From assembly GCA_903871935.1 (NCBI GenBank), contig CAIQIQ010000062.1, positions 72,020 to 136,019 of the forward strand: a DNA stretch of 64,000 nt, written 5' to 3'. Source of the DNA: an uncultured Phycisphaerales bacterium (lineage in GTDB: Bacteria; Planctomycetota; Phycisphaerae; Tepidisphaerales; Tepidisphaeraceae). How positions within the stretch are numbered: the stretch's first letter is position 1; each line of letters opens with the position of its first letter. This document shows, piece after piece, positions 8,054 to 64,000 of the stretch. A program made the position numbers and the translations under genes. The notes under the pieces are model-generated. The model ran no database searches, had not been told where the DNA came from, and saw only the letters and a program-made list of their open reading frames with translations.

Positions 8054-10669
8054 CTATGTATCTACCCATGGCTCAGCCTTAATGCCCTGGCGAACCAGGG
8101 AAACACAATTCGTGACCGCCATCAGTGCAGTCACCTTTCCAGCGGAATCGCGGACGGGGCGGAGGTCCACATCTACAGTGAGTTGCCGACCGTCTTTTGT
8201 CTGGCAGGGAACAGCAGATAGCGACAAGGACTCGCCAGCGCGCCGTCGCTCAAGCAGTTTCGCGTACGTTTCGCGCTTATCGTCAGGCACGACTGGCATA
8301 GGCTTGCCAACCACCTCCTCCTGTGTCCAACCGAACAGTTTCGTAGCAGCATCGTTCCAGATGATGACGTTCCCCTGGAGATCCAGGACATTGATCGGGA
8401 CCGGCGTAACCTGCAAGACAGCTTCGAGCAACCCGAGGATCTCTTCTCTGCTCCGCTGCGATGCCTTTGCCTCCGTTCGGTCGATCATGAAGATAGTAGC
8501 GAGATCTCTATCCTCAGGGTCCAAAGGAGCGCCACCGACCATGACCGGAATTCGCCGGCCATCTTTGCGGACATACTCTTTCTCGTAGGGGCAACGCAGG
8601 CCGTTGCGAATTCGTTCGTGTTGTTCTCTAGTAACATCTATCCAATCGGGAGGAGTCAGAGTGATCCAATTGATCCTTCCCTCTTTCAAGTCTTCACGTG
8701 TATAACCGAGAATGCGGAGATACGTATCATTGGCATCAACTATGAGGCCAGTAGTGATGTGGGCGATTGCCATACCCATCATATTGCACTCAAAGATGCC
8801 GCGGAAATGCTGCTCGCTGGCGCGCAATTCCTCTTCCATCCTCTTACGCTGGCTGACATCGCGGAAATGCACAGCCAGGCCATCTTGCCATCCGTACGCA
8901 TTCAACGCGACGTGGGCCCGGGCAGCATCGCTGTAGTACTCGATGTGCAGCGTTCCGCAGGTCTGCATGCACTGCGCCAACTGGCGTGTGACATCGGCAT
9001 GTGCGTTTGGCGGCAGGACGTCTTCCAGCAGCTTGCCCATGGCGGCGTCGCGGTCGATCCGTAGCATCTGGGCCGCCTTTTCGTTCATCCAGGTAACGTG
9101 ATGCTCGCGATCCAGCACAACAAACCCGTCGGTGATGGAGCCCAGCACGCCGGTCAGGTACCGATTGCTGGCCTGAAGCGACTCCTCCATGCGTTTGCGC
9201 TCGCCGATGTCGTGGAAATAGACGGTCAAGCCTTGGACAGAAGCGTAGGCGTGCAGTTCCAGTGGCACACCCAGTAAAGGACTGAAAGCCTCGAAGTGTT
9301 CAGTTCGAGATTGCTCCAAACATGACTTCAGTCGATCGTATATCGGGGTATCGATCACGCCCGGAAAGACGTCTTTGAGCGTGCGCCCGACGATGGACTC
9401 ACGCTCGCGGCCGAACATCCGTGCGCTTTCCTGGTTCATCCAGGTCACGGTGCCATTTTGGTCGAACGCTATAAACGCATCGGTGATCGACTCAAGGATG
9501 TTTGTGATGCGCTGGTTGGTATCCCACAGTGCCGATTGGAGGCGATGCCGCTCGCTGACGTCGGTGGCCGTTCGCATCAGCCCCTGCCGTCCGCCGGTAA
9601 GCTTGCCGATCGCCATGGTAGTAAAATCCCAGATCCGCGTCTGGCCGGATGCGGTGTGGATCGTGTACTCGCCCTCTTCAACCGGTTCCGGCCAGTCGTA
9701 CAGTACTTCGACATCGGTCGGCTCCCAGCGGTTCTGGTCGTGCTCGCCCTTGTCAAACCAGTCGCCCATCGTAGGCACATCTCTCAAGTGCCACCCGCTC
9801 TGCTGCGTCCAGGCGCGATTGACCATGACGACTTCGCCATCCGCCGCATAGACCATGACCGGAAACGGCATGTTCTCGACGACAGTTCGGAAGCGACGCT
9901 CGCTGTCGCGCAGCGCCTCACGGATACGGTCCTGTTTGGCAATCTCGACCAGCAGTTTCCGTTCGCGCGGCCCGGGATTGCGGGTGGTGGAGCGCTTGCG
10001 GGCACTGTCCCAAACCTGTGCAAATTCCGGTGTTTCCTTCAGAAGTGCCTTGTGTACGGCCATCACGCGCCCATCCTGCATGGCATCAGCGTCGGGATGA
10101 GCGTCGATCCAAACTCGCTGCATGGCGGCAAAGGTCGAGAGCACCACCACCTTGTTGAAGAGTTCATCACCCAACGCATCATGGGCGGCGTTACGGCAAC
10201 GGCCGCCGGGATCTTTTCGAACCGTCATGCGGGCGACCGCCCAAAGTATCCACAGGTCAAGCCCTTCGGGCATGCTCGCCCAGCCGGAGTGCAGCACCCA
10301 CGTGGCGGAGAGGGTGCGAATCTGCTCGGCGATCAATCGCTGAGGCGGGAGTTTCATCCGCAGGAATTCCAGAATCTGCTGGCCGGTCATCCCCATCTGC
10401 CGCAGCGAACAGCTTCGCACGATCAGCGAATACGGCGTCAGATTGAACTTCGCCATCACCGTCAGGAACCGCTCCTTAAAGAGCCGCGGCAGTGTGTTCT
10501 GGACATACCCGGCCTGAGTGATGAGCCACGCAGCGCGCAGCGAAACCGGGTCTTGCGCCAAACTAACCATGGCTGGCGGGATGAACCCGAAAACCTGGTG
10601 GATCTCAGCCAGAATCGGCTGTGACTCAGGCGGCATGCCCGCGAAATCAGGTGTGGCCCCTGCACTCAT
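8054..10669 (-). CDS. Multi-PAS-domain sensor protein with a non-PAS N-terminal domain and no recognisable output domain
   Basis: An 871-aa ORF. Four or five PAS/PAC-like units recur, each followed by a [E/Q]RKRMEE linker. Examples are VVENMPFPVMVYAADGEVVMVNRAW, ILESITDAFIAFDQNGTVTWMNQ and GSITDGFVVLDREHHVTWMN. The first ~230 aa are not PAS and may be AhpD/CMD-like, though that is uncertain. Confidence 0.75.
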   Translation of the reverse strand: MSAGATPDFAGMPPESQPILAEIHQVFGFIPPAMVSLAQDPVSLRAAWLITQAGYVQNTLPRLFKERFLTVMAKFNLTPYSLIVRSCSLRQMGMTGQQILEFLRMKLPPQRLIAEQIRTLSATWVLHSGWASMPEGLDLWILWAVARMTVRKDPGGRCRNAAHDALGDELFNKVVVLSTFAAMQRVWIDAHPDADAMQDGRVMAVHKALLKETPEFAQVWDSARKRSTTRNPGPRERKLLVEIAKQDRIREALRDSERRFRTVVENMPFPVMVYAADGEVVMVNRAWTQQSGWHLRDVPTMGDWFDKGEHDQNRWEPTDVEVLYDWPEPVEEGEYTIHTASGQTRIWDFTTMAIGKLTGGRQGLMRTATDVSERHRLQSALWDTNQRITNILESITDAFIAFDQNGTVTWMNQESARMFGRERESIVGRTLKDVFPGVIDTPIYDRLKSCLEQSRTEHFEAFSPLLGVPLELHAYASVQGLTVYFHDIGERKRMEESLQASNRYLTGVLGSITDGFVVLDREHHVTWMNEKAAQMLRIDRDAAMGKLLEDVLPPNAHADVTRQLAQCMQTCGTLHIEYYSDAARAHVALNAYGWQDGLAVHFRDVSQRKRMEEELRASEQHFRGIFECNMMGMAIAHITTGLIVDANDTYLRILGYTREDLKEGRINWITLTPPDWIDVTREQHERIRNGLRCPYEKEYVRKDGRRIPVMVGGAPLDPEDRDLATIFMIDRTEAKASQRSREEILGLLEAVLQVTPVPINVLDLQGNVIIWNDAATKLFGWTQEEVVGKPMPVVPDDKRETYAKLLERRRAGESLSLSAVPCQTKDGRQLTVDVDLRPVRDSAGKVTALMAVTNCVSLVRQGIKAEPWVDT

Positions 10670-24360: not shown

Positions 24361-24397
24361 GAAATCCCCCTTTCTTCTATGATATTATGGTTGCTGC

Positions 24398-24540
24398 ACC
24401 TTTGTCCTCATCGGCTATCCAGATCACTGATCATCGCAGATTGCGCGCACGAACCTGAGCACCTTTGTCCTCTCCGGCCAATGACTTCAGGACAAGTGAC
24501 CAATGACCAGAAAGAAACTTACGCACCTCCTTCTCCATCA
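24398..24540 (-). repeat. 145-bp dispersed repeat, inverted copy of 34295..34440
   Basis: The reverse complement of 24398..24540 matches 34295..34440 at roughly 90-93% identity, read by eye. It contains two of the SD-plus-start-like units, GGAGGTGCGTAAGTTTC and ACAAAGGTGCTCAGGTTCG. Confidence 0.7.
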
Positions 24541-24694
24541 AAACGCTAACCACTTATACCACAACCCCTTACAACGATAACAGTTATTCGCGCGACCTCG
24601 GCTATCTTCCTTCCCTTCGTGCCTCCGCGCCCCAGTGCCTTCGTGCCTGCCATTTCCGAATTGCACCAACTGCCGTTGCGGGTAGGGTAAGTAC

Positions 24695-33774: not shown

Positions 33775-33879
33775 AGTGCGGGAATGATAGTGGAAACAAA
33801 CCAGAGGCGGCAATGGATGGGTGATCGTCATTGATTCCCGGCCGCGCCGGGATTTCGCTTCGCTCAACATTGGTCAATA

Positions 33880-34930
33880 GTCATTGGTCGGGATGGTCAG
33901 GGCGCATGGGTTGACGGTAGTGCGTATCACTATTCCGTAACGGTAGAGGATGTGGAAATAGGGTAGCAGCGACGAAGCGACGGAGCGACGAGGGGGGGAA
34001 CCGGAGCAGAACAGTAGAGGCGAAGCGTTCCATGGGTGTTCCACGCGCAGGTTGTGGATAAGTAGGAGGTGCGCAAGTTCTCGGCGGGGGTACAACCATG
34101 GTGCTATCTTTCGTGGCTGCAGGCAGTTATGGCAAAACAGAGGGAGGAGATGATCAAGTTCGGTGCGCTTGTGGATGATTCCCGGCAGAAGAGCGGAACT
34201 CGAAAAGCGGAAAGCGAGAATGAAGGCAAAGAGGGCGAGGAGGCGCGTATATCTTCTTGCTTTGTAAGATGTTGTGAGATAAGTGGTTAGCGCTTTGATG
34301 GGGAAGGAGGTGCGCACGTTTCTTTCTGGTCATTGGTCACTTGTCCTGAAGTCATTGGCCGGAGAAGACAAAGGTGCTCAGGTTCGCGCGCGCAATCTGC
34401 GATGATCAGTAATCCGCATTACCGATGAGGACAAAGGGGCTCAAGATCGAGTGCGCATCTTGGGGCGGCATTGCCTACTTGTCCGGTCGGAGTTCTGGGT
34501 ATTCACTTGTGAAAGAACGGCGGCCGGGGTGCAAGCCAAAGACAGCCTAGAGGCTGCACTCCGAACGCAGAACGCGAGGTCCTTCTATATATAAGGGTGG
34601 ATTTGGAGGGGTCGACTTGAGGGAGATGAGTATTGACAGAGACTTACGTGCATCCAGAAATCTTTCCACATTTTGGAGCAGCAGGAAGACGTAATGCAGA
34701 AGTCAGAAGACAGAAGTCAGAAGCAGAGGGAGGAGTGGGCGATTGGCCGCTGTTGAGGCAGAGATCGGGCACGCTTTGAACACGGATATCGCCATATTCA
34801 ACCTGTAGATCTGCTGGAACCTTTGCGGAAGTGTAGAGCGTTGGGTTGATCGCTGCATCCCGCTCGCCTGGCGAGGGAAACGGCCCATCCCCCACATACG
34901 GCGCTCTACACCGCTCCTGACAGACCTGCT
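33880..34930. repeat. About 1 kb noncoding tract of internally repeated SD-plus-start-like units, paralogous to 63.1-64.0 kb
   Basis: Contains no plausible long ORF. At least five copies of the [purine-rich GGAGG/GGGAAG/ACAAAG] + (A/G)TGC(G/T)CA(A/G)G(A/T)T(C/A) unit occur, at 34066, 34306, 34371, 34432 and 34449. Blocks align with 63.44-63.93 kb at about 75%. Confidence 0.6.
34295..34440 (+). repeat. 145-bp dispersed repeat, direct copy (partner at 24398..24540 inverted)
   Basis: The two copies are near-identical apart from about 10 substitutions. Confidence 0.7.
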
Positions 34931-34985
34931 ACAAAGACGTCCCATGGCAACCGGAAACGCTTCACCGTCTCGTCGCGCAGGCAAG
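34895..34985 (+). promoter_or_regulatory. Conserved ~70-nt 5' module spanning the start codon of the GDPD gene (paralog at 37383..37465)
   Basis: CTACACCGCTCCTGACAGACCTGCTACAAAGACGTCCCATGGCAACCGGAAACGCTTCACCGTCTCGTCGCG is about 85% identical to 37383..37455. The module includes TA(C/T)AAAG 8 nt before the ATG and the first ~12 codons. Confidence 0.4.
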
Positions 34986-35684
34986 GATACTTGGAGGCCG
35001 GTCATCATTGCTCATCGTGGTGGTGCGGCGGGGTTTGGTCTGGCAGAGAACTCCCGCGAGGCGTTTGCTGCCGCTTCGGCCGCGGGGTTTGGCAGCGAAT
35101 GCGATGCCTGGGCATCGGCGGATGGGGAACCTGTGGTCATGCACGATCAGGAGTTGGCTCGCACAACGCTCGTAACAGGTCGGGTTACGGACATGATTTC
35201 ATCGGCGCTGCTGCAGGTGCATCTCAGGTCGGCAGGCACGCCCGCGATGGTTCCACTTCTGCGCGACGTGGCATGCGATGTCACGCTGGTCGAGATCAAG
35301 CAGAATAACGCGCGGGATCTGGTTGGCCGGGTGATTCAGGTCATGGAGGGAAGGGAATGGCGTTTACAGTCATTTGACCGTGCGAACCTGGTCTATGCTC
35401 GCGAGTTGGCGCCGTCGGTTCCGGTTGCTTTGCTGATGAGTGACCTTGCCGGTGCAACGGCCGCCATCGCCGGGGGCTGGCCGGCTTACATGGATCACGG
35501 TTTGTTGGATGAGGCGGTTGTGGCTCGTCTGCGGAATGGTGGGCTGGCCGTGGGCGCATGGACAGTCAATAGCGAGCAGGCTTTGCGCCGGATCGCGCCA
35601 TTCCGGCCGGACGTAATCATTAGCGATGTGCCGCAACTGATCCGCGACTGGCTGGCCGATGAACTGCCGGGCGGTAGATGGTGA
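34944..35684 (+). CDS. Glycerophosphodiester phosphodiesterase family protein
   Basis: The VIIAHRGG motif, E..ENS and the HD.ELARTT region are typical of the GDPD fold. Confidence 0.8.
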   Translation: MATGNASPSRRAGKDTWRPVIIAHRGGAAGFGLAENSREAFAAASAAGFGSECDAWASADGEPVVMHDQELARTTLVTGRVTDMISSALLQVHLRSAGTPAMVPLLRDVACDVTLVEIKQNNARDLVGRVIQVMEGREWRLQSFDRANLVYARELAPSVPVALLMSDLAGATAAIAGGWPAYMDHGLLDEAVVARLRNGGLAVGAWTVNSEQALRRIAPFRPDVIISDVPQLIRDWLADELPGGRW

Positions 35685-37040: not shown

Positions 37041-37401
37041 ACTGTCCGAGGGAAAGCTGAGTTATCGGCCGCGGCAATTGATGCGCGGCTCGTTTTCGTG
37101 GTCTTCACTGGATCAACTCAAGAGCCTGGAACTGCGGCTATTCTGGTACACGCAGGGAAAGGGAACGCAGGATGTGACGCTTGTTGAAATGCGTCGCATC
37201 AACTCACCGGCGTTGATGGGGCGAGAGCGATTTGAATTTCGCGTACCGGACGGTCCGTACACAATGCATGGGAAACTGATCTCGGTGCTGTGGGCATTGG
37301 AGTTGGTGAGCGAAGGTCCGAACGAGGTCACACGAGTGGACGTGGTCGTATCGCCGTGGGGAGAGCCGGTAATCCTGCGGGAAGAACTACACCGCTTCTG
37401 A
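37024..37401 (+). CDS. Hypothetical protein (125 aa) overlapping the 3' end of 35760..37040
   Basis: The ORF overlaps the upstream gene by 17 nt, in a different frame, and its stop is embedded in the conserved 70-nt module. I recognise no family. Confidence 0.35.
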   Translation: MRMAIELSEGKLSYRPRQLMRGSFSWSSLDQLKSLELRLFWYTQGKGTQDVTLVEMRRINSPALMGRERFEFRVPDGPYTMHGKLISVLWALELVSEGPNEVTRVDVVVSPWGEPVILREELHRF

Positions 37402-37465
37402 GAGACCTGCTATAAAGACGCCCCATGGCCAGCGAAAACACTACCTCGTCTCGTCGCGTTCCCTT
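37383..37465 (+). promoter_or_regulatory. Second copy of the conserved ~70-nt 5' module, spanning the start codon of the oxidoreductase gene
   Basis: CTACACCGCTTCTGAGAGACCTGCTATAAAGACGCCCCATGGCCAGCGAAAACACTACCTCGTCTCGTCGCG. Compare with 34895..34985. Confidence 0.4.
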
Positions 37466-40738: not shown

Positions 40739-41294
40739 ATGCACGATCCTACCGCGATCGCCAGAAAACAGAACCGCGGCGAGCGTTCGCCGCGGCTCAC
40801 TCCACGTTCCTTTTCCACTTTGCCTAGTAGAGCCCATCCCACCGCTCTGCATCTCGTTCTTCCTCGGGGACCCCTACGGGAACGCGCAGGGCAATCGCCG
40901 GACCAGTGGGAAACCGCAGAAGACGGCTTGAAACGACCATCGGTTCGGCGGCCAGAGCAAACAGATCCGGCATCTCGCTGATCGTCCTCGCCACGGCACC
41001 TAGGCGGAACTCCTTTTCGCTGCCAGGGGTCATGATATTCACAGTAATACTCCCTTCGTGTTGCGGCCACGTCCGGTCTTCTTGTCACCGATCACAGCCC
41101 ACCTCACTTCTTCCGGCCGTTCATTTATCAGTCTTATCGGTAGGATTCCTGCCTGTCCAGCCAAACTACTAGTGGTGTTTCGCGCTTTCCTTCACCGCCG
41201 CAAAAACGTCCGATAATGTAGCGCCCTCTATCCTCTCACGCGCGAAACGGGGCACTCCACCGAACAATGTTTTCCATAGCCTAAACGAGGACAG

Positions 41295-41397
41295 GTCAAA
41301 GGATGAAGGATGAAGGCGGAAGGATGAAACCAAGAACGCGGCCAATGCGCAGCACAACCCAACGCAGCTTGGCTACGTCTTCATCCTTCATCTTTTT
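41295..41397. repeat. Tandem GGATGAAGG repeats forming a long inverted repeat (17-nt arms, ~60-nt spacer) followed by a T-run
   Basis: AAAGGATGAAGGATGAAGG at 41298..41316 is complementary to CTTCATCCTTCATCTTT at 41379..41395. TTTTTGCC follows on the plus strand. Confidence 0.5.
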
Positions 41398-41415
41398 GCC
41401 TTTATCCTTGGATTA

Positions 41416-44510: not shown

Positions 44511-45299
44511 TTATGGGTTCAGCTCCGGCCGGCCCAGTTCATCCGGGACGACGCGGAAGCAATCTTCGGATTTGTCATAGTCGACCAGCAGTATACGCTG
44601 GTTCTTCTCAATCACCGGCCGATCCGAACTGACCCGGCACGACACCTGAAACACATCGCCAGCGGTGGTTCGAACCTGTCCCAGGCCGAAACTGGCATCG
44701 ATCTGGCTCAGCGCCACTCCGGCCGATCCGACCAAAGCATCCTTGCGCCTGGCCGGGCTGCCGCCCATGGGCAGGAGTCGTCCGATCAGGCGCGCAATCC
44801 ATCGAGTCAGCAGCGCCGCGATCAGCAACGCAGTCGGCATCGATACCAGTGGGATCACCCACTCGGCGAAGCCGGCTGATGCCATGATGCGGTTCAGGTT
44901 ATAGCCTGCAACACCCCAGAACATCGCGAACAGCATCAGCAAAAGCGAGATTGGCACTCGCCCGGCGCCAAGCCAGAACAAGGTATCCATCATCGCACTG
45001 TTGGAAGGGCCGCCACCTTCGTGGTCGGCGTCATGGTCGTGGTCCGCGCCTGCCGCATCGTGATCCGCGTCGCCGTCTGCATCCACATCCCCGTCCGCGT
45101 CTGCGTCAACATCCGCATCGGCGTCAACATCTGCGTCCGCATCGACATCGGCATCAGCATCCACATCCGCGTCTACGTCTACGTCGACGTGGCCGAACGT
45201 GATCCCCGTCGAGACGTACAGCCCCAAATACAGAAGAGCCAGCCCCATAGGGATGATGAACACCAGGTTCCACCACTGCAGTATCCATGTGAGGTTCAT
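44511..45299 (-). CDS. NfeD/YqiJ-like membrane protein with acidic (DV/DA)n repeat
   Basis: The ORF lies upstream of and adjacent to the flotillin gene, which matches the yqiJK arrangement. It has TM helices, a C-terminal OB-fold-like region ([27 protein letters not shown]) and a 60-aa insert [57 protein letters not shown]. Confidence 0.7.
45020..45200 (-). repeat. In-frame nucleotide tandem repeat (GAC/GCN)n encoding the acidic (DV/DA)n tract
   Basis: A periodic gcgtccgcatcgacatcggcatcagcatccacatccgcgtc block sits on the plus strand within the YqiJ-like CDS. Confidence 0.6.
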
Positions 45300-45432: not shown

Positions 45433-45475
45433 AAAAGGGGTCGGGAGTCTTTTAAAAAGACTCCCGACCCCTTTA
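45433..45475. repeat. Perfect GC-rich palindrome, copy 1 (AAAAGGGGTCGGGAGTC-ttttaaaaa-GACTCCCGACCCCTTTAT)
   Basis: A 13-bp perfect stem, an A/T-only 9-nt loop and A-tract and T-tract flanks. Copy 2 is at 48682..48725. This copy lies between divergently transcribed genes. Confidence 0.7.
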
Positions 45476-45517
45476 TGTCATCTTGACGGCTATCGGGCTC
45501 GGTACGACGATGCGGAC

Positions 45518-48681: not shown

Positions 48682-48725
48682 AAAAAGGGGTCGGGAGTCT
48701 TTTTAAAAGACTCCCGACCCCTTTA
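48682..48725. terminator. Perfect palindrome copy 2, likely bidirectional intrinsic terminator between convergent genes
   Basis: The same 13-bp stem as 45433..45475, but with the loop reverse-complemented (tttttaaaa). It begins 4 nt after the permease stop and ends 14 nt before the stop of the aldo/keto reductase gene on the opposite strand. Confidence 0.65.
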
Positions 48726-48738
48726 TTCAATCCACAGC

Positions 48739-60816: not shown

Positions 60817-63015
60817 TTACTTGGCGCCCAGAAGCACGCCCTTGACTTCGGCGGCACTCAGGTTCAAGGCGCCATGCGCTTCGGCGGCCGCCGCACGTAC
60901 ATCCAGGGCGGGCTCCTGAGTCACTGCGTTCTGCAGTGTCTTGACATCCTGCTCCTCGAGCAGGTTGCCGAAGAACTTCGCGCTGGTTGCCAGGCTGCCG
61001 TACATGCTGATGCGCATCGGGGCATCGAGTTTCGCATCGCTGGCCCTGGTCAGGAGCGACTGCTGGGCCGCCTTGGAGTTCATCAGCGCCAATGTCTTAC
61101 CTGAGGCCTTGGCAATCTCCGGCCGAGGATCTTCCAGAGCCAGGAGCAAAGTGCCCTGGGCGGCGGAGAGATCCAGCACCTGGCCGCGGCTGATCGCCAA
61201 TTGAGCGAGCAGTTCGGTAGCCTTCATCGCATAATCTGAAGCGGCCTTTTCATCCAGGAGCAGCGAACCGGCTTTCTTGCGGGCATCTGCAACGGCTGCC
61301 TTGAGTTCGTCGCCCTTGGTCGCCTGGGTCACGCTGATCAGCGGATCCGATGCGGCAAGGATGGCGAACGGCGAGGCCTGCGTCTTGGTTATGACCAGGA
61401 GTACTGCGCCCTGCAGACGCGGGGTCTGAGTTGCCAGTTTCTGCAGTTTTTCCACTTCGGTGCCGTTTGCATCGGACGCCAGGATCACATCGACCGCAGG
61501 CAGGCCTGTGGCAGCGGCCGCTTCAGCGGTGGTGGCGCCAGCGGCGTTATAACCGGCATCCTTGAGCGCCTGAACCTGTCCATTGAGTTGGTCTTCGGGC
61601 AGCATCACCAGGACGTAAGGCTTCCCGTTCTGCACGACTGCTTCAGCCAGAGTGGGCACGACGCGCTCCTGGCCGTCGAACTTCGTCTGCGGCAACGCTG
61701 CGGCGGCGGCAAACGCAGCCTCAAAGCGCACGATGCGGTCGGGATACTTCATGGCGTCGACCAGCACACCGGCCTGCTGAGGGGCAAACAGGGTGCTCTC
61801 TCCGCCGATCTGCTGCAACGACTTAACCGAAACCATGGCGAGCGCCGTATCGTGATCGCCAAGAGCGCGGGCAAGAACCATGTTCAGGTACTTCGCACCT
61901 GAAGCCACACCATAGTAGTGGGCGCTGGGGGTGTCGGCGGAGCGGGTGGGGTCCTGAGCGCCCTTGGGAAGGCGGACCTCGCTGCCATAGTCGGCAGCCA
62001 GCCAGAGCGCCAGGGCATCTTCACGCGCGGGGTCGATTTGCAGCGCCTTGCGTGCGGCGCGTTTGGCGAGCAGATCGCCGATAATCGGCGACGGCGCTTC
62101 GTGCCGCATGAGGCCCTTGGAATCATCCCACATCCACAGGGAAGCGAGGGCCGATCCAGCGGGGATGGTGATCGCCGATTTGTTGTAGTAGTACTTCTGA
62201 GCGATATCGTAGTAGAGGGCGGCCGGATCCTGTTGCAAGGCATCGGCCGCGCCCATCTTCTGCAGCGCAGCGGCCGCGGCGGCCTTGATCCCGGCGGGAA
62301 CATCGGCGGACTTGGCGAGGTTCACCAGCGGGGGAATGGCGACGTCGTAGCCGATGCTGCCCAGAGCGCCGACAACGTATAGCAGCGTACCTTCGTTGCG
62401 ATCGTTGATGGGCATATCCAGAGCGGCAACCAGCGGAGCCAGGGCCGCGTGGCCCATATCGATCAACGCCTGACGGATGGCACTTTGATACTGGCTCTTC
62501 GTCGGGTCGCGCAGATAGTCGAGCATCATGGGGACGGCAAGTTCACCGCTGTCCCGCAGGCGCTCGCTGGCGATCGCATAGGCCTGATCGCTGACCACAA
62601 GGCGCTTGATGTTGGCTTCGATGATCGCCTGATCTCCGCGGCGCTCACGATGGCCCTGCGCCAGAACGGCGATGACCTGGGTCGTGGCATCGCGAAGTTG
62701 AGGGATCTGCTGCCAGCGAAGCAACCACTGATCGAGGTTGTCCTTGCGCTCGTCGGCAACAGCCTCAAAAGCCTTGAGCAGATCCGCGGGTTGCGGTTTG
62801 GCTTCGAGGATTTTTGTAGCCTGCCCGGCCGCCAGGTCATAGCGGAATGTCTTGGCATAATGCCAGAAGGCATCGACGTCGCCCTTGAGCGAAACGTCGG
62901 CCGACTTCCCCGCGGGATTATCCTGTGCCCAGACGGAAGCAGGGGAAAACAATGGCAGAGCAACCGAACAGCAGGCAATGGCCACACTGGGCAGGAACCG
63001 AGGCAGTCGCATCAT
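60817..63015 (-). CDS. Large secreted alpha-helical (HEAT/ARM-like) repeat protein
   Basis: The signal peptide is MMRLPRFLPSVAIACCSVALPLFSPASVWA. About 700 aa of A/L-rich helical repeats follow. Start is taken at the internal Met of ORF 60817..63054. Confidence 0.6.
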   Translation of the reverse strand: MMRLPRFLPSVAIACCSVALPLFSPASVWAQDNPAGKSADVSLKGDVDAFWHYAKTFRYDLAAGQATKILEAKPQPADLLKAFEAVADERKDNLDQWLLRWQQIPQLRDATTQVIAVLAQGHRERRGDQAIIEANIKRLVVSDQAYAIASERLRDSGELAVPMMLDYLRDPTKSQYQSAIRQALIDMGHAALAPLVAALDMPINDRNEGTLLYVVGALGSIGYDVAIPPLVNLAKSADVPAGIKAAAAAALQKMGAADALQQDPAALYYDIAQKYYYNKSAITIPAGSALASLWMWDDSKGLMRHEAPSPIIGDLLAKRAARKALQIDPAREDALALWLAADYGSEVRLPKGAQDPTRSADTPSAHYYGVASGAKYLNMVLARALGDHDTALAMVSVKSLQQIGGESTLFAPQQAGVLVDAMKYPDRIVRFEAAFAAAAALPQTKFDGQERVVPTLAEAVVQNGKPYVLVMLPEDQLNGQVQALKDAGYNAAGATTAEAAAATGLPAVDVILASDANGTEVEKLQKLATQTPRLQGAVLLVITKTQASPFAILAASDPLISVTQATKGDELKAAVADARKKAGSLLLDEKAASDYAMKATELLAQLAISRGQVLDLSAAQGTLLLALEDPRPEIAKASGKTLALMNSKAAQQSLLTRASDAKLDAPMRISMYGSLATSAKFFGNLLEEQDVKTLQNAVTQEPALDVRAAAAEAHGALNLSAAEVKGVLLGAK

Positions 63016-63379
63016 GGTGCTGGCCTCCAGCGAGAGATAGCCGTAGATACCCAAACCTGAAGAAACAATCCCAGCCGCCGGAAGAGGCTGCTAAGCCAGG
63101 CACCGGAGGCGGAACTTTTCATCACTGCGTATAAGCGGGAGGAACACATTGTCCCAAGCCTAAACCCACTTCGACGCGAGGTGAGCATAAAACGACGCAA
63201 ATACAGTGTCAAGGAAGAGTTGCCCGTTTCCTGAAAGTGGATGGAGGGAACAGGTGGCGGCCGGAAGGCGGATTGGTGGGCAACCGGGCTGGAGAAGGCC
63301 AGCCGCCGAGCACAGCAGATGTGCCGGGAAGGCGTTTGCGTGGATACCATGGAGGCCAGGAAGTCCCAGTTGGAGGGCC

Positions 63380-63940
63380 GATAGATCGGCGGGAGGGAAG
63401 ATGCTCAGGTTCTTGTGCACAGGCAAAGAGGTCGGTGACGCGGATCATGTCGGGTGGAGAAGTCGGAAGCAAGGAGACGAGCGGGGACCCGAATGGCGAA
63501 CTCTGATGACGAGTCAATGACGAAGGCGAGAGCATGACGAATGGGTGGTGGACGGTTGTGGATAAGTAGCACGTGCGCAGGTTCTGGGCGTGGGTACCAC
63601 CTATGCGACAAGTGCCTTGAGGACAATGAGTTAGGTGCAGTTTGGTTGAGGAGGTGCGCAAGTTCGATACGCTTGTGGATAACTCGGACGAAGAGCGGAG
63701 AGCGAATAGCGGAATGCGGAAACACCCAGGCATTGAGGCACGAAGGGAAGGAAGATGCTCAAGATCACGGGTAGTGATTATTGATTGTTCCGTAACGAGA
63801 GAGGGAAGATGCTCAAGATCGTAGCGACGAAGGGGAAGATGCTCAGGTTAGCGCGCGCAACCTCGGGTTCTCGGTGATTTAGCTCACTGATGGCGACAAA
63901 GGTGCTCAGGTTAGCGCGCACAGATTGGGTGGAACGCGTT
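63380..63940. repeat. Noncoding tract of at least seven SD-plus-start-like short units, paralog of 33.94-34.46 kb
   Basis: Units occur at 63388, 63560, 63640, 63739, 63787, 63826 and 63890, with forms such as GGGAAGATGCTCAAGATC, AAGGTGCTCAGGTTAGCGCGC and GAGGAGGTGCGCAAGTTCG. The block 63540..63700 aligns with 34040..34200. Confidence 0.6.
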
Positions 63941-64000
63941 CCATCTTGATCTACTTTGGTCCACTGTCAGTTTGGCAGGGTGGTGGGCGGTATTCAGTTG

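Follow-up and report, generated by a model that had tools for sequence, protein, structure and literature searches.

A modular, box-bearing intergenic repeat in the genome of a freshwater planctomycete

The locus and the units of tract B

The window analysed here is a stretch of 64,000 nt (64 kb) from an uncultured Phycisphaerales bacterium of the Tepidisphaeraceae (contig CAIQIQ010000062.1), and all positions of the element are given in its coordinates. Its end, at 63016-64000, opens a long gap between divergent genes and carries a copy of an intergenic repeat, which we call tract B; two further copies in the window are called tracts A and C (Table 1). Purine-rich units do exist where an earlier note on this DNA had placed them, but what had been described as a run of short units is actually a modular element of about 0.5-0.9 kb. 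Tract B is confirmed as a real, reproducible feature. A hidden Markov model (HMM) of the element matches it at 63518-64000 (E=9e-107) and at an extra unit, 63387-63447, and finds no copy in the window beyond A, B and C. MAFFT alignment, blastn and the element HMM agree with the earlier claim that tract B belongs to the same family as the tracts at 34 kb and 24.4 kb. A and B can be aligned over about 600 nt, and positions 24396-24600 are an inverted repeat of 34236-34440 (205 nt, 88% identity). Tract B runs past the end of the window; the contig L001, which comes from the window's own species, contributes 63 nt beyond the end, leading into the last module of the element.

Seven unit cores were located in tract B, starting at 63402, 63574, 63655, 63756, 63810, 63840 and 63903. 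They are separated by 172, 81, 101, 54, 30 and 63 nt, not by the 40-60 nt originally reported. The pattern RTGMKCARGWTC matches the window 10 times, compared to 0.49 matches expected from shuffled sequences (none of 100 shuffles reached 10), and nine of the ten matches fall inside tracts A, B and C; a longer pattern, GGARGRTGCKCARGWT, gives 12 matches where 1.0 is expected. Strand skew is strong over 63100-63900, with G exceeding C and A exceeding T on the plus strand. Three consecutive units had been called almost identical, of which the first, reading AGGAAGATGCTCAAGATC, matches at only 17 of 18 positions. The proposed local duplication holds for the units at 63744-63766 and 63798-63820, which are 91% identical; in L001 and L004 the second of this pair differs by an indel of 12 nt. 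The suggested AGGTT/AACCT stem on the GCGCGC units of tract B is present at 63845-63863 and missing at 63908-63926, and the hairpin AGGTT-GCGCGCGC-AACCT is not a trait of the family, since the copies on L003, L007, L009 and L010 do not retain it.

The gene on the left of tract B encodes a secreted HEAT-repeat protein. The tract had been placed downstream of it; the gene lies on the minus strand, so that the tract is upstream of its start and the two diverge. The 216 nt next to the gene are 75-87% conserved in the orthologous loci on L011, L012, L013, L015 and L016, with or without the repeat, and because this upstream region is kept irrespective of the repeat, we place the start of the element at about 63232. 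A TTGACA-17-TATGCT site lies in the region on the minus strand (63212->63184). On the other side, a contig from the same organism (ERZ1426627) has the next gene, on the plus strand, after a gap of about 2.75 kb (window-equivalent position ~65771); this gene encodes 997 aa with a weak LptD match. Between the HEAT gene and this LptD-like gene there are only three open reading frame (ORF) calls, none with a Pfam match.

Modules, copies and rearrangement

All-against-all blastn and MAFFT alignment of the copies revealed a shared order, M1-spacer-M2-M3. M1 has two TTGTGGATAA boxes (box1; in full TTGTGGATAA(G/C)T, two per element), each adjoining a RGGTGCGCARGTTC box (box2; RGRTGCKCARGWTC, four or more per element). 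The first half, M1a, has the general form TTGTGGATAAGT, about 3 nt, AGGTGCGCARGTTC and then the palindrome GGGGTACCCC, and its box1 and box2 are nearly invariant across the nine full copies. About 45 weakly conserved nt separate it from M1b, with the general form GGAGGAGGTGCGCARGTTC, 7 nt, TTGTGGATAACT. The spacing of the box1 pair is fixed at 116-117 bp in 9/9 full copies (117 bp in tract B), despite variable intervening sequence. The spacer between M1 and M2 is purine-rich and 60-290 nt long, with extra units in some copies. M2 comprises two GRTGCTCARGWT units with hairpins: M2a (GAAGATGCTCAGGTTAGCGCGCGCA) is followed by hairpin H1, M2b (GGTGCTCAAGATCGGTGCGCATCTT), hairpin H2, the junction GGTATTCARTTGAGAAAGAAC and one M3 module. 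In H1, 89.8% of cells are paired over seven copies, compared to 19-43% in slid controls, and both sides have changed in three of seven pairs, a count matched by 29 of 500 shuffles. At the position of H2, other copies have CCTAC-TTGTCCG-GTAGG or GCCGG/CCGGG hairpins, whose stems are unrelated between copies. Type 1 of M3 occurs in B (seen via L001), L003, L004, L005, L008 and L009, and type 2 in A, L007, L010 and L011. Extra units are present in A, B and L010, while C and L008 are truncated. The same strand is purine-rich in every copy, the unalignable spacers included. Per core of 320-550 nt, this sense strand has 7-20 of the Shine-Dalgarno (SD)-like 4-mers GGAG, GAGG and AGGA, and the antisense strand has 1-5.

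Table 1. Features of the repeat and its surroundings, in window coordinates
Feature	Position	Strand	Remarks
Tract B, modular repeat copy	63232..64000, past window end	+ (sense)	HMM match; left limit defined by orthologues
Isolated extra unit CGGGAGGGAAGATGCTCAGGTTCTTGTGCACA	63390..63421	+	In variable purine-rich region 5' of M1; missing from the orthologous copy on L011
M1a in B	63553..63601	+	box1 TTGTGGATAAGT 63556-63567; box2 GCACGTGCGCAGGTTC 63569-63584; GGGTACC core 63592-63598
M1b in B	63646..63685	+	box2 GGAGGTGCGCAAGTTC 63650-63665; box1 TTGTGGATAACT 63673-63684
Two near-identical units	63744-63766, 63798-63820	+	54-nt period; duplication specific to the B/L004 subtype
M2a in B	63832..63859	+	GGGGAAGATGCTCAGGTTAGCGCGCGCA; block used as pattern to retrieve L003-L010
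Hairpin H1 in B	63871..63890	+	TCGGTGA-TTTAGC-TCACTGA, between M2a and M2b
M2b in B	63895..63922	+	GACAAAGGTGCTCAGGTTAGCGCGCACA, 63 nt after M2a
Hairpin H2 in B (B/L004 variant)	63961-63983	+	CCACTG-TCAGTTTGG-CAGGGTGG
Junction into M3 in B	63989-64000	+	GGTATTCAGTTG, conserved
Tract A, full paralogous copy	34017..34912	+	M1, one extra box1/box2 unit, M2, M3 type 2; HMM E=6e-157
Tract C, truncated copy	24396..24664	-	One box1/box2 unit and M2; HMM E=3e-18
HEAT-repeat gene, 732 aa	60817-63015	-	Signal peptide
HEAT gene promoter/5' untranslated region	63016..63231	-	216 nt, conserved in orthologous loci; not repeat

The family extends beyond the window. An exact pattern for M2a retrieved L003-L010, seven distinct contigs of the JGI metagenome Ga0209083, whose GC content of 0.60 is like that of the window. 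With the three copies in the window and one on L011, the dispersed copies are all intergenic, have their modules in a set order, and vary in the number of units and in the alternative M3 that they carry, as in a mosaic interspersed repeat. They are 70-90% identical to one another (blastn). The genes flanking them are unrelated: HEAT, Gfo/Idh/MocA, GDPD, ECF sigma, GT4, DUF4265 and O-methyltransferase genes. Tract A, for example, sits between a divergent Gfo/Idh/MocA gene and a GDPD gene. Among the eight independent copies with both flanks known, four lie between divergent genes, four between tandem genes (two sense, two antisense) and none between convergent genes. A scan of viral contigs gave no match, and blastn against 72,556 plasmids and 50,697 phages found no similarity to the repeat.

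Two familiar kinds of repeat do not fit. The units are not a CRISPR array: they are degenerate cores of 12-25 nt, spaced by 30-172 nt, and the "spacers" are homologous between copies. Nor does the element look like a DDE-transposon-derived repeat or a miniature inverted-repeat transposable element (MITE), with only one 12-nt inverted pair in 63000-64000, unrelated element ends and copies that are 70-90% identical.

The HEAT locus gives a view of the repeat across species. The homologues of the HEAT protein are labelled Tepidisphaeraceae, a hint that the host planctomycete is probably Tepidisphaeraceae-like. On L011, where the orthologue has 82% amino acid identity, an element occupies the corresponding site with unchanged orientation, and its box spacing is 117 bp. 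The L011 copy is without the extra units of B, has different genes beyond it, and carries M3 type 2 where B has type 1. M1 and M2 of the two copies are about 75-80% identical, and the counterpart of 63232-63540 and the spacer between M1 and M2 cannot be aligned. The contig with an 84% orthologue, L012, stops 435 nt upstream of the HEAT gene. Loci with HEAT orthologues of at most 74% identity (L013-L019) have no element there. These comparisons show nearly invariant boxes amid spacers of free sequence and length, and copies that lie between unrelated genes, are retained at the orthologous site of a related species and swap modules.

Signs of exchange between copies are seen within the window's own species. 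Over 10.8 kb, the window and L001 differ at 15 positions, all of them in 63784-63860. The last ~330 nt of L001 are 100% identical to L004, a separate copy with different flanks, and the contigs L001, L002 and L004 all end inside M3. The alignments point to paralogous 3' halves that are near-identical, and to either gene conversion or assembly switching between copies. The repeat truncates contigs in several independent metagenome assemblies.

A sister genome with ~90% nucleotide identity, represented by L020, differs in arrangement. Here the segment corresponding to window positions 27314->24660 is inverted and joined, with 12 nt between, to 34592-34686. The latter is the M3 module of tract A, kept at 93.7% identity in L020, where it is followed by a 3-kb insert and then by the GDPD gene. 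The M3 type 2 of A thus stands alone in L020, upstream of a different gene, and the junction is without M1 or M2. From this one junction, we infer that part of the window is inverted relative to L020, with the visible end-points falling on C and A, two copies in opposite orientation. A check for polymorphism of the inversion within the window's species found one and the same arrangement in 22/22 contigs, which is hence fixed. In these alignments the repeat coincides with assembly breaks and with rearrangement end-points. An inversion, swapped modules and a break of synteny with the sister genome all fall on the repeat, which is therefore likely to drive rearrangements of the genome in this lineage.

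Readings of the repeat

We put about even confidence in the following reading: tract B is a copy of a lineage-specific, non-coding, mosaic intergenic repeat of ~0.5-0.9 kb in a freshwater planctomycete, which is maintained by recombination, transcribed in the sense direction and acts in cis. In such an arrangement, copies would be kept alike by recombination or gene conversion, and the element would be transcribed from its purine-rich strand. It would act on its neighbours by bearing promoters or by serving as their leader, and factors would bind at box1 and box2. Tract C speaks for an action on neighbours. It covers 269 of the 334 nt between a divergent 80-aa gene and a 322-aa HEAT gene, so the element sequence must, by its position, presumably supply at least one promoter there.

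Several results speak against this reading. A scan for sigma-70 promoters and terminators found no element-borne site common to the copies, and the TTGACA-N17-ARAAAT candidate that we aligned by hand in M3 is weak and variable in spacing. The copies on L005 and L009 are antisense to both neighbours, and the element is for this reason not simply a leader for a downstream gene. The covariation terms of RNAalifold are positive (unfavourable) for M1, M2 and M3, and conservation is therefore mainly of primary sequence. Over the whole element, the fold z-score of the sense strand is only -0.9, while that of the antisense, pyrimidine-rich strand is -3.4; the z-scores show local self-complementarity and do not identify a structured RNA. 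That the boxes are conserved could be due to homogenisation of the copies or to what a mobilising enzyme requires, and not to a host function. Finally, exact M2a and M1b patterns found no match in 185,579 GTDB species genomes, and the phylogenetic spread of the family is poorly sampled.

One might ask whether the repeat is purely selfish, a non-autonomous element of the MITE, BOX or REP (repetitive extragenic palindromic) kind, in which the boxes are recognised by a recombinase or transposase and any effects on neighbours are incidental. Its copies are dispersed in unrelated contexts, some of them (C and L008) are truncated, and the family is confined to a narrow clade. At the corresponding junction, L020 has neither M1 nor M2 of tract A, and the 74% orthologues on L015 and L016 have no element. 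On similar grounds, the interspersed repeats BOX (boxA-boxB(n)-boxC), RUP and SPRITE of pneumococci have been judged parasitic (Croucher et al. 2011, PMC3049150). Even so we consider a purely selfish origin of these features unlikely. The element has no terminal inverted repeats, its left end (TTGTGGATAAGT...) being unrelated to its right ends; no target-site duplications are evident at the copies; and an identity of 70-90% between copies argues against a recent burst. Moreover, the orthologous copy keeps boxes, spacing and polarity, while the adjacent non-coding DNA cannot be aligned.

The sequence of box1 raises a further possibility. Box1 contains the 9-mer TGTGGATAA, which we take to be the reverse complement of the canonical DnaA box. 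Across ~278 kb surveyed, 17/17 perfect copies of this 9-mer lie inside elements and none outside, with about one expected by chance overall, and it is invariant at 17 of the 18 box1 positions. A literature search for the box sequences themselves turned up nothing but papers on DnaA boxes and unrelated primers. The elements could then be DnaA-binding modules at the DNA level, with two high-affinity boxes (TTATCCACA, antisense) held about 11 helical turns apart by the fixed pair spacing, although the sequence between them varies. Lying beside promoters, at tens to hundreds per genome, such dispersed modules would titrate DnaA or couple it to the transcription of neighbours, like the B. subtilis clusters and E. 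coli datA, and thereby buffer free DnaA and tie unrelated genes to the initiator. In B. subtilis, clusters of DnaA boxes away from oriC are known to regulate both initiation and the genes beside them (PMC3245932). We nevertheless regard this possibility as distinctly improbable. The identity of the 9-mer to a DnaA box was noticed post hoc and may be a coincidence, and the canonical 9-mer may not be the DnaA-box consensus of this lineage. Each copy has only two perfect boxes, at 116-117 bp, and is without an AT-rich region for unwinding. DnaA does not account for box2, which is conserved just as well, and a strand-asymmetric purine content is superfluous for DNA binding. If the reading were true, the repeats would form a dispersed counterpart of datA and of the B. 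subtilis clusters. The resemblance to such clusters, the nearest analogue for this reading of box1, lies in perfect 9-mers in non-coding intergenic DNA beside promoters (B. subtilis clusters, PMC3245932; E. coli datA/DARS). The known systems differ in being unique loci with more boxes, whereas the present element is a dispersed repeat family, in which a role for DnaA is putative.

The abundance of GGA motifs brings to mind RNA sponges such as CsrB and RsmX/Y/Z, which likewise have many GGA-containing purine-rich units at irregular spacings of 30-100 nt on one strand. The family would then encode trans-acting long non-coding RNAs (ncRNAs), whose GGA/GGAGG units sequester a CsrA-like protein or, via the anti-Shine-Dalgarno sequence, 30S subunits. 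The SD-like 4-mers are indeed dense and restricted to one strand, unit cores such as ACAAAGGUGCU presumably resemble CsrA-type A(N)GGA sites, and the L005 and L009 copies stand alone, antisense to their neighbours. Compensatory changes are seen in some hairpins, and M3 has UUCG and GAAA loops. We find it very improbable that the copies are sponge RNAs, since a consistent promoter or terminator is missing, the sense fold is unremarkable (z near -0.9) with weak covariation, and truncated, module-swapped copies are atypical of functional ncRNA genes. In the known sponges, moreover, GGA is displayed in hairpin loops, which is not demonstrably so here, and they occur in 1-5 copies, against three in these 64 kb alone, the present copies being far more numerous and variable. 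There is no match to CsrB, Rsm or any other Rfam family, even at E<=5. Searches with Rfam 15, which includes CsrB/Rsm, T-box, riboswitches, the group II intron and HEARO/OLE/GOLLD/ROOL, found no match at the gathering score in the window, and permissive E-values gave chance-level matches only (E>=1) in B, A, L005 and L009. ARAGORN detected no tRNA or tmRNA, though the blocks GCTCAGGTTAGAGCGC and GGTTCGA look tRNA-like.

A few other candidates were dropped for mismatches in spacing or sequence: sigma-54, ECF and GacA-box promoters, a XerC/D dif arm (GGTGCGCA), a T-box (GGGTGGTACC) and Tn7- or Mu-type ends (TGT...).

As for coding, the comparisons show that the repeat is non-coding. There is no conserved ORF, and the copies run into unrelated genes, which may lie in either orientation, instead of forming the 5' part of an ordinary one, the case that would have told against the earlier note. 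Indels of 2, 5, 7 and 9 nt between A and B (MAFFT) break any frame, and in L008 the frame through M3 is cut by a stop codon. None of 10 ORFs from the tracts has a Pfam match, and for the 174-aa minus-strand ORF in B a search of 5.8 billion proteins returned no homologue but itself. The pyrimidine-rich strand of the repeat is without stop codons over 63209-63733 (-), 33874-34317 (-) and L003 10493-11302 (-), which is the reason for spurious calls of 100-270-aa ORFs without homologues; one example, P0001, is found in 31 public contigs. The units had been described as SD-like, and by their GGAG/GAGG/AGGA counts this look is real. They are not working ribosome-binding sites for conserved peptides, because the GTG or ATG has no usable spacing from GGAG (they abut, at 0-2 nt) and because the nominal third-codon positions are the most conserved while second positions vary, the opposite of coding constraint. 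It is scarcely credible, then, that translation of short ORFs or leader peptides (M/V-R/L-K/R-F/I...) truly begins at the units, or that the tract belongs to a protein gene, as its 5' part or as what is left of it: a purine-rich run does precede ATG or GTG in each unit and the frame opened by M1b reads (M/V)RKFGxLVDNS in most copies, but the frames range from 17 to 162 codons and end in unrelated C-termini.

Returning to the reading of a mosaic, cis-acting repeat, the closest known kind is the mosaic interspersed repeat, such as pneumococcal BOX or the bacterial interspersed mosaic elements (BIMEs) of enterobacteria, a broad kind within which the present family is new. With BOX, RUP and SPRITE it shares an interspersed intergenic location, ordered modules, variable internal units, restriction to a narrow clade and slow change, as well as spurious ORF calls on either strand and, putatively for the present element, co-transcription with neighbours (PMC3049150). 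The likeness to BOX and BIMEs is in how the elements work, and no sequence similarity to boxA/B/C or to the REP consensus is expected. The present element is several times longer than BOX (0.5-0.9 kb versus about 0.1-0.3 kb) and strongly strand-asymmetric, and what is conserved in it is mainly a set of primary-sequence boxes, not an extensive secondary structure. Its 3' module comes in two alternative forms, and its box spacing of 117 bp is rigid. In BIMEs, the units are palindromic REPs that alternate in orientation and lie for the most part at gene 3' ends, with sites for IHF and gyrase. They resemble the present family in combining short conserved motifs with variable linkers in intergenic DNA, in having sites for DNA-binding proteins (putative here) and in serving as substrates for rearrangement. 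By contrast, the units described here are all direct and have no defining palindrome, and the copies avoid gene 3' ends and convergent regions (0/8). The Correia elements of Neisseria are MITEs that can carry promoters and affect neighbouring genes. As non-autonomous dispersed repeats predicted to do the same, the present copies are comparable; they differ from MITEs in that neither terminal inverted repeats nor duplications of a target site could be found and in that they are divergent instead of near-identical.

Interspersed repeat families have barely been described in Planctomycetota. The discrete, rigidly spaced boxes conserved in this long, polar repeat suggest that specific factors bind them. 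Should one of these prove to be DnaA or another global factor, the family would constitute a repeat-borne regulatory network.

Other repeats and paralogues

The GDPD gene beside tract A (34944-35684) is called in public annotations with 181 aa (P0122), from a start 65 codons inside the longest ORF. Its distant homologues have about 227 aa, and the true start, and hence the length of the intergenic region 3' of tract A, may differ from the call. A 72-nt repeat with 85% identity spans the start of the GDPD gene (34906-34977) and that of a Gfo/Idh/MocA paralogue (37387-37458), in each case with the DNA directly upstream and the first few codons. It is also kept in L020, and may be a shared promoter or a leaderless start.

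Small repeats also occur around the copies. On L008, at ~9830-9900 (-), seven to eight tandem GTGTAGCA units with a period of ~11 nt adjoin a terminator-like hairpin module (CCCGGCSCCGCCGGGATTTCGCT), which is found upstream of tract A as well (33836-33876, 90% identity). Short repeats AATGACCAATG and TCATTGGTCA, together with a GATCGCCRCGGCGAC hairpin, recur in the spacer of L005 (~2480-2540), at positions 1-220 of L012 and at 34327-34360 of the window. Their recurrence is a sign that other small mosaic modules exist apart from the main element. Inverted purine-rich arms, GGATGAAGGATGAAGG, lie at 41293-41318 and 41376-41401, and the GGATGAAGG motif of these arms is also found directly upstream of the repeat in L005 and L009.

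Elsewhere, a perfect palindrome of 41 nt (AAAGGGGTCGGGAGTCTTTT.AAAAGACTCCCGACCCCTTT) occurs in two copies that are 98% identical, at 45433-45476 and 48683-48726. The two look like bidirectional terminators and flank a gene block of 3.2 kb. At 45039-45194, repeats rich in GTC/ATC with periods of 6, 12 and 18 nt lie within the ORF 44511..45299 (-) and represent a low-complexity coding repeat. L003 (1-6763) and L007 (3734-5797) carry four paralogous genes of ~1.9 kb for a 711-aa membrane protein, with 70-78% nucleotide identity, three of them in tandem.

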